Shown: positions 12,424 through 18,752 of the stretch, piece by piece
Layout of the letters: the number at the start of each line of letters is the position of its first letter
How positions within the stretch are numbered: the stretch's first letter is position 1
Source: Dictyostelium discoideum
Lineage: Eukaryota
DNA: 64,000 nt
Assembly (NCBI GenBank): GCA_000004695.1
Contig: CM000151.3
Coordinates: 128,001 to 192,000 of the forward strand
Reading direction: 5' to 3'
Translations under genes and position numbers: made by a program
Notes under the pieces: generated by a model
What the model saw: only the letters and a program-made list of their open reading frames with translations
Told to the model about the DNA's origin: nothing
Database searches by the model: none

Positions 12424-12983
12424 TTAGAATCTTAATTTAGAGAAGAACCATTTTGATTTACCAGCTTTGTGTCTATTTTTTTAAAAAAAGGAGAAAATAG
12501 TTAGTAAAAGTTTTGGTGTTTTTTAGTTTAGTTTGGTTTTTTAAAATTTATCTATACATACTTGGCTTCAAAGATCTTTTTGACGGCTAAACGAGTGTGA
12601 GCACGTTTGGCGACTTGTGAGCTTTCAACAGTGACGGTGTTTTTGAGACCAGTGAAGGCAGATTCATCACGACCTTCAAAGTTGTAACGGGTTGGCATGA
12701 TGTGGTTGTAATTGACGACTTTAACAAATGAACGGATGGCAGTACGTTTGAGGATGGTCTTTCTGCTCATTGATCTAACGATTGAACGTGGGTATTTGTC
12801 GATACCAGCAACTAAACAGTGGCCGTATGGTCTTGATTTGCTTGCGGTGGCATCATCGAAGGTCTTGATGACAACAGCCTTACGACCGGCGTATTTACCG
12901 TTTAAGAGGATTACTAATCTACCTGGTTTGATGCTAAAAAAATAATATTTATATAATTTAAGGGTAAGTCCAAATTTGTTCAT
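12424..12983 (-). CDS. rpl27: 60S ribosomal protein L27 (L27e). Exons on the minus strand are 12562..12983 and 12424..12472, with the intron at 12473..12561. The 5' end is uncertain.
   Basis: IKPGRLVILLNGKYAGRKAVVIKTFDDATASKSRPYGHCLVAGIDKYPRSIVRSMS...VKVVNYNHIMPTRYNF matches the L27e family. Splicing the terminal exon (GTATGT...AAAAATAG) yields ...KAGKSKWFFSKLRF*, the conserved L27 C-terminus. The N-terminus is anomalous (see finding). Confidence 0.8.
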
Positions 12984-13655
12984 AATAACCCATACTATCA
13001 TGTGTTTCTATTAATCTATTATCAAACATCCTCATCCTCACATAATCCCAACATTCACATCACATATAATTATTATCCAAAAAACATATCATAGATTGAC
13101 AATGATGATTGATTATCTATTGTTGAATATTTTGATTAACTATTATTGAATATAGATTGATGAGGATTGATAAAGATTGATATAGATTGAGAAAGATAGA
13201 GAGAGAGAGAAATATAAAAAAAAAAAGATAGAGGTAATAATAACAATCACATACAACTTGGATGACATGGTTGGTGTATAGAAGCTACTAAACGAAAAAC
13301 GCGAAATTTTTTTTTTTTTTTCATGCAGTTTTTTTTTTTTTTTTTTTAACGATTTCAAAAATTTTTTATTTTTTTTTTTTTATTTTTTTTTTTTTTTATG
13401 AGTGCGGAAAACCGTTATCTTATATTAATAATTTTTTGTATAAGTCAATTTCCATATTTTTTTTTTTTTTTTTTATTAATTATTTATTTATTTATTTTTT
13501 CTGATCTATTTATTTATTAGTTAAAAAATTATTATTATTATTATTATTTTTTTTAATAATAGTATTATTGTTGTTTATTTTTTATTTTTTTGAGAACTTT
13601 TTTTTTTAAAAGTGATTCACAATGAAAATTTAATCACACACAAAACTTTTTTTTT

Positions 13656-13745: not shown

Positions 13746-15828
13746 ATGAAAATTTTTTTAAAGAATGATGAAGAAAATTCTTTATTTAATTTTGATAATT
13801 CAAACCAAAATAATCAATTAAAGATTCTTAATGGTGATAACGCACTTCAATCATCTATCAATTCAGCGTTATCAATTTTCTCAATTTTGAAAACATCATT
13901 AGGTCCAAGAAGTATGAGTAAACTTATAATAAGTATGTATTTTTTTTTAAAAAAGTAAATAAAAAAAAACCAATAATCATATTGATAGAGGAAGTGAAAC
14001 CAACTAAATAATTTTTTTTTTTTTTTTTTTTTTTTTTTTCTAAATATAGAAGATAATGGTTCATATATAATTAGTAATGATGGTGCTACTATATTATCAA
14101 ATATTAAAGTTGAACATCCAGCAGCAGTTATATTAGTAAATATAGCATTATCACAAGATAGAGAGATTGGTGATGGAACAACATCAATAGTTTTATTAGC
14201 AGGTGAAATATTGAAATCATTAACAAAATTATATTTTCAAGCTAAATTTGATGGGAAATTAATTCATCAAACTACAATCACAACAATCCTATATCAACTA
14301 TTAGAAATAATTAATAATGGAATATTGGATTCAGTATCGGTTGAATATGATAATTCAACCACTGATACTCTATTCAAATTGGCAGGTGTTGCATTAGGCA
14401 CAAAACATTATTCTTATTGGACTAAAAATTTAACAACTATTACAATTAATGCAATTCAAAATTCAATTAATGCAAATCAAAATTCATCAATTATAATTGA
14501 TATTAAAAATAATATTCAAATTTGTAAATTACAAGGTGGTAATATTGATCAAAGTTGTTTTAAAAATGGTTTAATAATTTCAACAAAACAAATTCCATCA
14601 TTAATAAATATTAATAATAATAATAGTAGTATTAAATTAAAAACTATTATAGTTGGATATGATATTAATAAACATATTGAATCAACACAATCAATACATG
14701 AAACTATAAAATCAACACAAGAGATGAATAAATATTATGGAATAAGTGATAATTTAATTTTAAATTTTGTAGATAGATTAATTAGAAACAAAGTTACACT
14801 TGTATTTTTTAAACATAAAATAACAGATTTCTTATCACAATTATTATATTCAAATAATATTTCAATGGTTCAAGATTTTAATGATACCAATAGTAATTTT
14901 GAAGCAGATTCAATAATAACTAAACTTTCAAAATTAACAAATTCAATACCAATAATGAAATATGATGAATTGGATTTTCATTTACTTCAACAACAGCAAC
15001 AACAACAACAACAACAACAACAAAATGAATTTGAAGTTTATAGTTGTTTTGGTACAATTAGTAATTTTGAAATAATTTCAAAGTTTGAAGATGATTTTTA
15101 CATTTACTTAAAGTAAGTAATAATAATTACAAAAATAATATATAAAAAGAGTTTTTTTTTAACAATGTTTTTTATTATTTTTTATTTATTTTTTTATAAC
15201 TAGTAATAATTTTAAAAATAATGGATTATCATGTATATTGTTAAGAGGACCAACTAAAGATATAGTTGATGATTTAGAAATTGGTATTATAGATTCACTA
15301 TATTTAATTAAATCATCATTGGAATCAACTCCAATGATAGTTTATGGTGGTGGATCTTGTGAAATGGCAATATCAATGAAATTATTAGAATATTCAAATA
15401 GTATTAATATTAATGATAATGATAACGATAATGAAATAAATTATAATCAAAACTATTGGAAAAAAGAAATATCAAAAACATTATCAGAGTGTTTTCAAAT
15501 TATACCAACTATTTTAGTAATGAATGCATATAACTCTTGTTCAAATATTAAATCACCATTAGAAACAATAGCTGAATTATCAACTATTCACTCTAAAAAA
15601 AATCAAAATCAAACAGAAAAACAAGAAGAAGAAGAAGATAATGGTGGTGGTAGTAGTACTCAATGTAGTTTGGGTATTGATGGATGGACAGGTGAAATTA
15701 AAGATATGAAACAAATGAATATAATTGAACCATTAATACTTAAAAAATCAATTATAACTGCATCTATTCAAGCCGTTATAGCATTATTAAGAATTGATAC
15801 AATAGTATCTTCATCCTCTTTCGTTTAA
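13746..15828 (+). CDS. Divergent TCP-1/cpn60 (group II chaperonin, CCT-like) family protein. Exons are 13746..13932, 14050..15112 and 15204..15828.
   Basis: Present are the TCP-1 signature LGPRSMSKLI, then IISNDGATILSNIKVEHPAAVILVNIALSQDREIGDGTTSIVLLAGEIL (ATP-binding GDGTT), and later LLRGPTKDIVDDLE...VYGGGSCEMA. Introns are GTATGT...ATATAG and GTAAGT...AACTAG with consistent phases. The rest is N/Q-rich and much less conserved than the canonical CCT1-8 subunits. Confidence 0.7.
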
Positions 15829-15921: not shown

Positions 15922-16507
15922 TTAAGAGTACATTGAATTATTTGAGTAATATCTTCTATCATTATCATTATCGTCATCGTTATTATTGGTGGTTGTCGAA
16001 CTATTAGTTGAACCATTTTTTAATTCATAATCTCTAACTATTCTAACCATTGATTCATATTCAGCATCAATTGTCGGTAATGGATAACGACAGTTTGGAC
16101 AAGCAGCAGAAGTTTTTAACCAGGAATCTAAACATTCATGATGAAAATAATGTTTACATGGTAATTTTAATGCTTCTGTATCGATTGGGAATTCACATAA
16201 ACAAATTGTACAATCACCTATTCTAGTTTTATTCTTTTCATTAATTGTAATTTCTTCTGTAATTTCATTAAATTGATATTCTGAAATTGGTGGTACTGGT
16301 CGACTTTAAAAAAAAAAAAAAAAAATAATAATCAACATTAATAAACAACACAACAAGTTTGATATGGTATGGAGCTGTTTACTCTAAATTCAATAATAAT
16401 TACTGTTTTAATGCAAATTTAATTCTTTCAATATCTATTTCTTCTTCTTGATTATCAAATCTAATATTAATATTCTCTATAAAGTTTCTTAAATTATTAT
16501 GAGCCAT
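15922..16507 (-). CDS. RING-H2 zinc-finger protein (RNF181/RNF126-like E3 ligase candidate). Exons on the minus strand are 16404..16507 and 15922..16303. It is absent from the ORF track because it is split by an intron.
   Basis: The minus strand encodes MAHNNLRNFIENINIRFDNQEEEIDIERIKFALK(H)RPVPPISEYQFNE...GDCTICLCEFPIDTEALKLPCKHYFHHECLDSWLKTSAACPNCRYPL, a canonical C3H2C3 RING-H2. The intron at 16304..16403 is GTAATT...TTAAAG. Confidence 0.7.
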
Positions 16508-16921
16508 TTTGTGTATTATAAAATGAAATTAGTTTGTGGTTTTAAATTTTAAAATTAATGAAAATAAAAAAAATAAAAATAAAAATAAAATATTAAAAAA
16601 AAAAAAAAAAAAATAAAAAAAAATAAAAAAATTTTAAACAGCAAATAATTACATCTTAGATTAATAATTTTTTGTTGTTGTTTTTTTTTATTTATTTATT
16701 TTTGACTCATCATTAATAAATTAAATTATTATTAAAATATTTAAAAACAAAGAAAAAAAAAAAAAAAAAAAATTTAAATTCAATTTCATAGTATTTTCAC
16801 CAAGATATTTTCAAGGAATTTGATCTTTTTTTTTTAATTTTTTTTTTTTTTTTAAAAAAATATTGAGCATTTTTTTTATTTTTTTTTTTTTATTTTTTTT
16901 TTTTTTTTTTTTATTATTATT

Positions 16922-17502
16922 ATGATTTTTAATAAATTGAATTATTCATTGATTAGAAATAATACATTTAAAATTTTAAAAAGAAGAATGACAACAGCAA
17001 CTACAGCAACAATTAAAATTAATGGTAATGATACTCCATTAACAATTATTCCAAATGAAATTAGTTTAGAAACAGTTATGTCTGCACCAAATTTTAATAA
17101 ATGGATAAAGAAAATGGAATTAGAGAAAGAATTAAAAGTAAATAGTATTTCAGTTCAATCAGTTGATATGTTTGGTAAAAATGTTGGATTTCTTAAATTT
17201 AAAGCAGATGTCGTCACAGTGAAAGAGGGTAGAGTCGTGCCAGGTATCATTTTCTGTCGTGGTGGTTCCGTTGCAATTTTAGTGATTTTAAAATCAAAAG
17301 AAACCGGTAAAGAATATTCAGTATTAACTGTTCAAACTCGTGTACCAGTTGCATCTTTCCAATATTCTGAAATTCCTGCTGGTATGTTAGATGGTTCTGG
17401 TCATTTCGTTGGTGTTGCTGCAAAAGAATTAAAGTAATTATTAATAATCAAATTTACTTACTTACTTACTACTACTATTATAAAATATTAATATAAAAAA
17501 AA

Positions 17503-17978: not shown

Positions 17979-18752
17979 TTATTCATCATCTTCTTCATCT
18001 TCTTCACCATCTTCACCATCAAATTCATCGTCATCCTCATCATCATCATCATGATCTTCTTCTAAAAGGATTGAAAATGGATCTTCATATAATCTTGAAA
18101 ATTCTTCAAAAGTATCAAGATCAGCATCATTAGATTGTAACCAAGTTAAAATAAAACTTTGTTCAGCAAAATCAACTTGCTTTCTTTTTTTATTGTTGGT
18201 ATTATTTTTAAGAGTGATTGGAGTTGAATTTGTGTAATCGATTTTTGTGTTTTTACAAGTTGAATTACCATCTTTATCAGTTATAATCTCTTTTGTAATT
18301 TGTTTATTCTTAAAGATTGAATTATCTTTAAAAGAGAATACAATTTTTTTGATGATTTCTTCTTTTTCAAGGTTTATGTCAGTTTCAACTTCGATATTTG
18401 TTAAACAGTCAACTACTGCTTGATCATTGTCAGCAAAGTTATCAATCATTGCTTTTGATAGAATTGTACCCCAAAATCCTTGAAAATCTTTACTCTTTTG
18501 TAATAATTCTGATCTCTTTTTAAATTGAGATTTTAATTGTTGATTGAATTTATGTTCAACTTGTAACATTTTCTTTTTATTTTCTTCAAAAATTACTTTA
18601 ATTTTATCATTAATTACATTTAATTTATCTTGAATATCTTGTGGAATATCTGTTGTTGTTGTTGTAGAGGAAGCATTATTATTTTCAACAGTTTTTTCTT
18701 GTTCAACTTTAACAACTTTTTTATTATTATTATTTCCTTTTGATTTACTCAT
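17979..18752 (-). CDS. Nucleosome assembly protein (NAP/SET family) histone chaperone with an acidic C-terminal tail. Single exon.
   Basis: The NAP-domain core is FWGTILSKAMIDNFADNDQAVVDCLTNIEVE...FSFKDNSIFKNKQITKEI. The C-terminus is a D/E-rich tail (EEDHDDDDEDDDEFDGEDGEEDEEDDE), as in SET/NAP1. Confidence 0.7.
   Translation of the reverse strand: MSKSKGNNNNKKVVKVEQEKTVENNNASSTTTTTDIPQDIQDKLNVINDKIKVIFEENKKKMLQVEHKFNQQLKSQFKKRSELLQKSKDFQGFWGTILSKAMIDNFADNDQAVVDCLTNIEVETDINLEKEEIIKKIVFSFKDNSIFKNKQITKEIITDKDGNSTCKNTKIDYTNSTPITLKNNTNNKKRKQVDFAEQSFILTWLQSNDADLDTFEEFSRLYEDPFSILLEEDHDDDDEDDDEFDGEDGEEDEEDDE

Follow-up and report, generated by a model that had tools for sequence, protein, structure and literature searches.

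A probable ninth group II chaperonin subunit, conserved across and restricted to the social amoebae

The chaperonin TRiC/CCT is seen as a hetero-octamer of fixed composition, built from eight ancient subunits, and the lineage-specific offshoots of this family known to us are either near-identical duplicates or ATPase-dead accessory factors, as in the case of the BBS chaperonin-like proteins. A chaperonin gene at 13746..15828 on the forward strand of a 64,000-nt stretch of Dictyostelium DNA (contig CM000151.3, positions 128,001 to 192,000; the window) raises the question of whether its product is one of these eight subunits, a decaying copy, a BBS-type protein or a subunit in addition to them. 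From our profile, phylogenetic, structural and selection analyses, we consider it probable that the gene specifies an additional ("ninth") subunit of the group II chaperonin type, conserved throughout the social amoebae and confined to them. A sequence-only reading of the locus had described a highly divergent CCT-like paralogue whose apical and intermediate regions were replaced by low-complexity sequence, perhaps a specialised or degenerating chaperonin comparable to the MKKS/BBS type. Its headline is right, and the domain replacement and the degenerating or BBS-type gloss need correction.

Translation of the gene model gives a product of 624 amino acids (aa) that is a group II chaperonin by its match to Pfam Cpn60_TCP1 (PF00118; E=7e-80, 269.5 bits against a gathering score of 34.3), which covers residues 46-620 and nearly the whole model (positions 3-488 of 490). 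Within this group, the protein falls short of the curated equivalog cut-off for each of the eight canonical subunits (TIGR02340-02347). It scores 229.8 bits against a cut-off of 553 with the gamma model (TIGR02344), 188.9 against 800 with alpha, 167.6 against 695 with delta, 166.7 against 669 with eta, 149.4 against 456 with theta, 141.5 against 711 with epsilon, 128.7 against 522 with beta and 95.5 against 587 with zeta. The thermosome models are missed as well (TIGR02339, 225.4 against 671; NF041082, 223.9 against 450; NF041083, 215.4 against 400), and all eight orthologues scored are likewise below every CCT1-8 cut-off. By these curated thresholds, the protein belongs neither to any of the eight canonical CCT orthogroups nor to the archaeal thermosomes. 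In neighbour-joining (NJ) trees its family is monophyletic in 100% of bootstraps. The description as a highly divergent CCT-like paralogue is thus borne out by failure at every CCT1-8 and thermosome cut-off and by a clade of its own that contains only Dictyostelia, and the same two results agree with the suggestion of a specialised chaperonin. Conservation is indeed far below that of canonical subunits, as the gamma score and an identity to CCT3 of 14-33%, depending on the domain, illustrate, and clear orthology to one canonical subunit at normal conservation was not found.

The family was recovered from dictyostelids in both of our database searches. A word-indexed search returned orthologues from D. 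citrinum (80% identity), D. firmibasis (78%), D. purpureum (63%), Polysphondylium violaceum, Tieghemostelium lacteum, Heterostelium album, Synstelium polycarpum and another EukProt entry, and its first match past the dictyostelids, with 153 bits, was an archaeal thermosome. No entry of that collection, in which UniRef and NCBI nr are included, is 100% identical to the window protein. When 1.84 billion representative proteins were searched with the family profile, filter-free, Cavenderia fasciculata DFA_01723 was added at 559 bits and the Synstelium member, an incomplete gene model, was confirmed at 488 bits. The family thus comprises one orthologue each from nine other dictyostelid species, the early-branching C. 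fasciculata among them. No member outside Dictyostelia was found among the 1.84 billion proteins of the profile search. Scores fall from 559 bits to the level of archaeal thermosomes and CCT gamma at about 230 bits, with two exceptions: the 488-bit Synstelium model, and a 323-bit match to a Freyarchaeota polypeptide with two thermosome units, whose score is summed over both copies. As judged from these searches, the family is restricted to, and conserved across, Dictyostelia. It has been noticed once in the literature, in a study (PMC10074162, iScience 2023) that described a single D. discoideum protein in no CCT family, DDB_G0268902, as "BBS12-like". The window gene is very probably DDB_G0268902 or its orthologue, because it behaves in the same way and because only one such family, with one member per species, was found.

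Some of the database entries met in these searches are unusual in their own right. Besides the tandem double thermosome of Candidatus Freyarchaeota (P0104, 1057 aa), a second one comes from a JGI metagenome (P0107, 1047 aa), and each holds two complete units. The Synstelium polycarpum entry (P0008, EukProt) is an 800-aa model in which a chaperonin-like protein lacking part of the apical domain is followed up by a complete glutathione synthase. Most probably the gene model was merged or left incomplete, and the fusion is not a true one. The D. purpureum orthologue (P0003; L003 6001..8091) bears the UniRef name "CCT-eta", although eta is only its sixth-best NCBIfam model and lies far below the cut-off. 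This name is an automatic misannotation that could propagate.

The ATP site of the window protein is well preserved. The three PROSITE TCP-1 patterns, applied as regular expressions, were all matched, on the forward strand like all features of the gene given below. Signature 1, KTSLGPRSMSKLI (aa 49-61; 13890..13928), contains LGPRS.SK, which is invariant in the family. Signature 2, ISNDGATILSNIKVEHP (aa 70-86; 14070..14120), holds D73, the Asp of the NDG motif, together with HPAA (aa 85-88). Signature 3 and the phosphate-binding loop form QDREIGDGTTS (aa 98-108; 14154..14186), in which the pattern matches QDREIGDGT (aa 98-106) and GDGTTS occupies aa 103-108. Further along lie the nucleotide-sensing-loop region GTKHYSYW with Lys181 (aa 179-186; 14397..14420), a motif invariant in the family, and the catalytic helix RGPTKDIVDDLEIGIIDSL (aa 431-449; 15244..15300), with the catalytic Asp D447 at 15292..15294 and a family-specific change of ER to EI at I443. 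We take D447 to be the counterpart of D386 in Methanococcus Mm-cpn. The nucleotide-binding glycine loop with its Glu was located by alignment and motif blocks as GGGSCE (aa 465-470; 15346..15363).

Across 96 aligned group II chaperonins, invariance is limited to the columns D73, G74, D99, G103-T107, K181, G397, D447 and G465, and the window protein carries every one of these residues. G465-G467 are all present, the ATP-site residues are kept throughout the family, and the 120 columns that are invariant over eight family members include all ATP-site motifs. The TCP-1 signature, GDGTT loop, HPAA motif and GGGxxE region on which the sequence-only reading had relied are therefore all in place. The catalytic Asp, whose conservation it had left to be checked, is invariant in the family and in the 96 chaperonins, as is D73. 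From these alignments, we conclude that every residue class used for ATP binding and hydrolysis in group II chaperonins is retained.

The overall architecture also appears to be intact. When the window protein was aligned with canonical chaperonins, no deletion of more than 4 aa was found, in the lid region or elsewhere, and the lid segment is of normal length. What the protein has gained are nine insertions of 93 aa in total, rich in N, Q and D and placed in loops. We examined the fold in an AlphaFold2 monomer model of the D. citrinum orthologue (P0001), which is 89% identical over aligned positions. This model is a complete three-domain chaperonin with a mean predicted local distance difference test score (pLDDT) of 84 and a predicted template-modelling score (pTM) of 0.82, and its segments of low confidence are limited to the N-terminal tail and the inserts. 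It possesses the N- and C-terminal strands and the stem loop, which are ring-contact elements in other chaperonins. A Foldseek comparison with the PDB returned closed-state TRiC and thermosome subunits at template-modelling (TM) scores of 0.83-0.88, and the six best matches were CCT3 chains from TRiC in its closed state, at 0.87-0.88 after normalisation to the target. The model thus predicts the full equatorial-intermediate-apical fold with ring-contact elements, and the earlier claim that whole regions had been replaced by low-complexity sequence does not hold.

Compared with human CCT3, the equatorial domain is 33% identical, the intermediate domain 29% and the apical domain 14%. Most of the divergence lies in the apical domain, which binds the substrate, and in the low-complexity loop insertions. 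A polyglutamine-containing insertion in the apical domain, FHLLQQQQQQQQQQQQNEFEV (aa 372-392; 14976..15038), fills columns that are missing from canonical chaperonins and is found in group-4 species only; the equivalent segment of the D. citrinum model has a pLDDT of about 71-76, below its flanks. In the equatorial domain, an N/D-rich insertion (aa 485-499; 15406..15450; pLDDT of the D. citrinum equivalent about 54) varies in length within group-4 species and is missing from the other groups, and a Q/E-rich insertion (aa 549-562; 15598..15639) is missing from D. citrinum and D. firmibasis. The lengths of these three inserts differ even among the window species, D. citrinum and D. firmibasis, and most of them are lacking outside group-4 species. 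They look like the typical Dictyostelium repeat expansion that is tolerated in surface loops. The contents of N (10.6%) and I (13.9%) are high, and high N, I and S are spread over the full length of the protein, as expected in a genome of 22% GC; GC is about 22% across the whole window.

Low similarity to canonical subunits, together with many low-complexity insertions whose lengths vary between close species, could point to a decaying duplicate, a pseudogene or neutral drift in which chaperonin motifs were left by chance. We find this barely credible. Reading frames are intact in the window and in seven full-length orthologues, out to Cavenderia fasciculata, and the two further sequences are one incomplete or merged gene model and one fragment. 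The ratio of nonsynonymous to synonymous substitution (dN/dS), estimated by the Nei-Gojobori method for every pair of the four species compared, lies at 0.19-0.25 over the whole gene. For the separate domains it is 0.11-0.14 (equatorial), 0.12-0.21 (intermediate) and 0.25-0.34 (apical). As a control, the adjacent RPL27 gene (124 codons) has a dN of 0 and a dS of 0.14-0.17, its protein being 100% identical to those of D. citrinum and D. firmibasis; the RPL27 comparison with D. purpureum (L003) was mis-registered and is left out of account. The dS of the window gene against D. citrinum is 0.27. Splice sites are conserved, and the invariant columns described above include the ATP-site motifs. These substitution patterns indicate a gene maintained by purifying selection that is strongest on the ATPase domain. 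Its evolution is much faster than that of its housekeeping neighbour RPL27, and fastest in the substrate-binding domain. The term "degenerating" is not compatible with intact reading frames, an equatorial dN/dS of 0.11 and catalytic residues that are invariant in the family.

As to the origin of the family, we give about an even chance to an old CCT3 (gamma) duplicate that accelerated on the dictyostelid stem. Gamma is the top NCBIfam/TIGRFAM model for the window protein and for seven of the eight orthologues (195-258 bits), the sole exception being the Synstelium model, which is truncated and merged and has its best score with a thermosome. Behind gamma, the thermosome models follow at 4-30 bits and alpha at about 40, and theta, epsilon, beta and zeta are lowest. 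A real thermosome (P0009) places the alpha and delta CCT models above gamma, and the gamma preference of the family is therefore not a default. Sequence searches of the PDB give 166.6 bits for human CCT3 against 121 for delta and 117 for alpha, and 152 for yeast CCT3 against 130 for alpha. Per-column similarity in hhalign is highest for gamma (0.49). The motif states LGPxS, TK..S.W and G(I/V)(D/N)G.TG are shared by the family specifically with gamma, the first through the Ser of signature 1 and the second through the S.W state of the sensing-loop region. Gamma-diagnostic columns are shared in 2 of 14 cases against 1-2% for other subunits, small numbers that are only suggestive.

The NJ trees were computed from Kimura-corrected distances over 508 trimmed columns with 200 bootstraps. 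They included nine full-length family members, 17 thermosomes, five BBS12 sequences, human CCT8, CCT6A and CCT3, and sets of gamma, alpha, beta, delta, epsilon and eta sequences classified by NCBIfam or by their source names. The human CCT8 and CCT6A sequences used were confirmed to be 100% identical to PDB 6qb8_q and 6qb8_z, and CCT3 was confirmed against 7lum_H. A chimeric bait of CCT2, CCT8 and CCT6A gave only long fused CCT-beta gene models, so that theta and zeta are represented by the human sequences alone. When BBS12 was left out, 49-55% of the replicates made gamma the sister of the family, about 22% (21-31% across runs) a single thermosome and 7-13% alpha.

Some of these results would be accounted for by descent from an archaeal thermosome that the ancestor of the dictyostelids acquired by transfer, or from an ancient thermosome-like lineage outside CCT1-8, with introns and a host-like composition gained later. 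Of the ten best remaining profile matches that were put through classification, eight were archaeal thermosomes, one was a gamma and one stayed unclassified, and thermosomes were likewise the best non-dictyostelid BLAST matches of DDB_G0268902 (PMC10074162). The highest hhalign score is that of the thermosomes (581, against 530 for gamma), their profile models come within 4-30 bits of gamma, and up to 31% of the NJ replicates place one of them as sister. Thermosomes, however, are short-branch "central" sequences that are matched well by any divergent group II chaperonin. In the window protein and in seven of eight orthologues, each of the three thermosome models scores lower than gamma, the 40-bit preference of gamma over alpha is not a default for an unaffiliated sequence, and gamma-like motif states are present. 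No specific archaeal sister emerged, either from the NJ bootstraps, in which the sister is one varying thermosome and not a clade, or from the published survey, which found no archaeal protein with affinity for the D. discoideum protein (PMC10074162). The genes also have 2-6 spliceosomal introns and lie in conserved eukaryotic synteny. Either form of thermosome-like origin is, on balance, unlikely.

The gamma affinity could also mean that the protein is the dictyostelid CCT3 orthologue itself, unusually fast-evolving and occupying the normal gamma position of TRiC, since gamma is the best match by HMM (hidden Markov model), by PDB sequence search and by fold search. We regard this as highly improbable. 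All members score 195-258 bits against the gamma cut-off of 553, and even microsporidian gammas reach 510-530. The apical dN/dS would be unexpected for an essential TRiC subunit. UniProt lists a separate TCPG_DICDI. All canonical CCT families have been readily identified in D. discoideum besides DDB_G0268902 (PMC10074162).

In that same study, DDB_G0268902 is sister to animal BBS12 in a maximum-likelihood (ML) tree "with good support", and its authors urge caution. The family would then be a genuine non-animal BBS12 orthologue, a BBSome assembly factor kept in Dictyostelia for a non-ciliary role, which we find very unlikely. Adding BBS12 to our NJ tree also pairs the two in the base topology, but with a bootstrap of 24-26% and with distances that reach saturation (3.47, close to the cap). 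The BBS12 sequences used here are real database entries, all from tetrapods, fished with a human BBS12 bait that served for this purpose only and to which the best match is 98% identical. Against them, the family HMM scores 5-31 bits, whereas 220 canonical chaperonins receive 115-264 bits from it. In the reverse direction, the family obtains 2-10 bits from the BBS12 HMM, below the canonical median of 20 and the top canonical score of 53. In hhalign the two families score 41 (probability 34%), far from the 581 and 530 of thermosome and gamma, and no other comparison gave reciprocal profile scores as low.

The motifs agree with these scores. In the alignment, BBS12 is without NDG, GDGTT, the sensing-loop Lys and the catalytic Asp, and has an insertion of roughly 40 aa after the sensing loop, which is consistent with a review of these proteins (PMC5534436). 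The dictyostelid family keeps all four (NDG, GDGTTS, TK and the catalytic Asp) and is without an insertion of this type. Of the 129 columns diagnostic for BBS12, the family shares only 6, chiefly Leu or Ser. Dictyostelia do not form cilia (PMC10074162). BBS12 identity was therefore rejected on the low cross-HMM and hhalign scores, the motifs kept that BBS12 has lost, and the low bootstrap. We conclude that the BBS12 placement is best explained as a long-branch artefact and that the published label "BBS12-like" is probably mistaken. The MKKS/BBS comparison made in the sequence-only reading is apt as a loose analogy to a lineage-specific, fast-evolving paralogue, and is not borne out as relatedness to BBS12.

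Several observations weigh against an ATPase-competent ninth subunit of gamma descent. Its ATPase competence and ring assembly are deduced from sequence and from the monomer model of an orthologue, not from a model of the window protein itself. The Arg of the catalytic-helix ER pair, found in at least 90% of the 96 chaperonins and situated four residues ahead of the catalytic Asp in the ...ER..xDA motif, is Ile in every family member (DLEIG). A comparable loss is seen in human CCT6A, and CCT6 is a subunit of low ATP affinity; by this likeness, hydrolysis by the family protein may be slow or regulatory. As for gamma descent, the sister bootstrap never exceeds 55%, and with human CCT3 as the sole gamma reference it is 30%, against 31% for a single thermosome. 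Our trees are NJ trees only, with one theta and one zeta sequence. The best raw profile matches and the best hhalign score are thermosomes, and several of the gamma references are microsporidian and AT-rich, which makes compositional attraction a caveat, although the human and yeast PDB comparisons agree with the gamma lean. Finally, the existence of a separate canonical Dictyostelium cct3 rests on PMC10074162 and on UniProt, not on searches in this analysis, and the identity with DDB_G0268902 on matching behaviour rather than on sequence.

An extra subunit of this kind is predicted to be ATP-driven. ATP binding and hydrolysis in the equatorial domain would act through the intermediate domain on closure of the lid, and the fast-evolving apical domain would confer a substrate or partner specificity unlike that of CCT1-8. 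The protein may replace CCT3 in the TRiC ring, form a ring of its own or act as a free accessory factor. We tentatively put forward, while holding it to be unlikely, that it is a ninth ATPase-competent subunit which either replaces CCT3 in some TRiC rings, offering a different and perhaps development-linked substrate surface, or forms a thermosome-like homo-oligomer beside TRiC. If true, this would be the first documented case in a eukaryote of a group II chaperonin of alternative composition or of a second cytosolic one, and in a genetically tractable organism. Membership of TRiC or of a ring of its own would mean that chaperonin composition can be remodelled in a free-living eukaryote. The result also revises the published suggestion of a BBS12 orthologue in a cilium-less amoeba, and bears on when the BBS chaperonins arose.

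The gene consists of three exons separated by two GT..AG introns, with a spliced coding sequence of 1875 nt for the 624 aa. Exon 1 (13746..13932) begins with the ATG at 13746, ends before a GTATGT donor at 13933 and encodes aa 1-62 plus 1 nt, comprising an unstructured N-terminal tail, the N-terminal strand and helix, and TCP-1 signature 1. The orthologues start with MKIFLN or MKNFLN and have a first exon of 184 nt. Intron 1 (13933..14049; 117 nt, 14.5% GC, phase 1) ends with the AG at 14049, and its removal restores SKLIIKDNGSYIISNDG, colinear with all orthologues. Exon 2 (14050..15112; aa 63-417) covers the remaining N-terminal equatorial segment, the intermediate domain and the entire apical domain, and its product aligns continuously to CCT3 residues 18-322. 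Intron 2 (15113..15203; 91 nt, GTAAGT..AG, 9.9% GC, phase 2) is followed by exon 3 (15204..15828; aa 417-624 and the stop), which returns through the intermediate domain with the catalytic helix to the C-terminal equatorial segment and closes with the stop codon TAA at 15826-15828. The D. citrinum and D. firmibasis orthologues map exactly to genomic loci with an identical three-exon layout and introns at matching positions. The coordinates 13746-15828 proposed earlier are exact.

The gene order GDPD..RPL27 (reverse), chaperonin gene (forward) and RING gene (reverse) is common to three other Dictyostelium species, and a forward NUDIX gene is next in line in D. citrinum and D. firmibasis. In the window, the ribosomal protein L27e gene (12552..13001, reverse; main exon inside the open reading frame) is divergent to the chaperonin gene, with a spacer of roughly 750 nt rich in long runs of T and A between them. 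The RING-H2 gene (about 15922..16600, reverse; 3' end CPNCRYPLPTIDAEYESMVRIV) converges on the chaperonin gene, the two stops lying 94 nt apart, and this neighbour is present in all three other species examined. Beyond it, an open reading frame at 16922..17437 (forward) stands in place of the NUDIX gene of the sister species. Another with an acidic tail at 17979..18752 (reverse) stands where the sister species have a faint NAP-family gene; both assignments are by position only.

Compared with known systems, the family most resembles CCT3/TCP-1 gamma of TRiC (TIGR02344) in its three-domain fold (TM 0.87-0.88 to human CCT3 in closed TRiC), its ATP-site motifs, its best subunit model and PDB match, and the minor motif states LGPxS, TK..S.W and G(I/V)(D/N)G.TG. 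It differs from CCT3 in lying more than 300 bits under the gamma cut-off, in an apical identity of 14%, in 93 aa of loop insertions, in the ER to EI change and in being without a C-terminal tail after RIDTIVSSSSFV; it is also confined to Dictyostelia, where it is reported beside a canonical CCT3 (PMC10074162). With the archaeal thermosomes it shares a comparable overall similarity (215-225 bits), the top profile matches and the highest hhalign score, but it scores far under their cut-offs, and its genes are eukaryotic, with introns and conserved synteny. Like BBS12, it is a fast-evolving side branch of the CCT family, limited to one lineage and with additional insertions; unlike BBS12, it keeps the ATP motifs and carries its insertions at other places. 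BBS proteins act in the BBSome and in cilium biogenesis. Vertebrate CCT6B and CCT8L are likewise extra CCT copies kept in one lineage (Mukherjee et al. 2010, as summarised in PMC5534436), but these are still recognisable in their parent orthogroup, whereas the dictyostelid family is under every orthogroup threshold. In contrast to the known offshoots, it combines an ATP site and ring-contact elements that look intact with a substrate-binding domain that evolves fast. The family is a lineage-specific addition to the group II chaperonins rather than something categorically new, and a rare example, in a tractable model organism, of an extra CCT-like subunit that appears to be competent as an ATPase.

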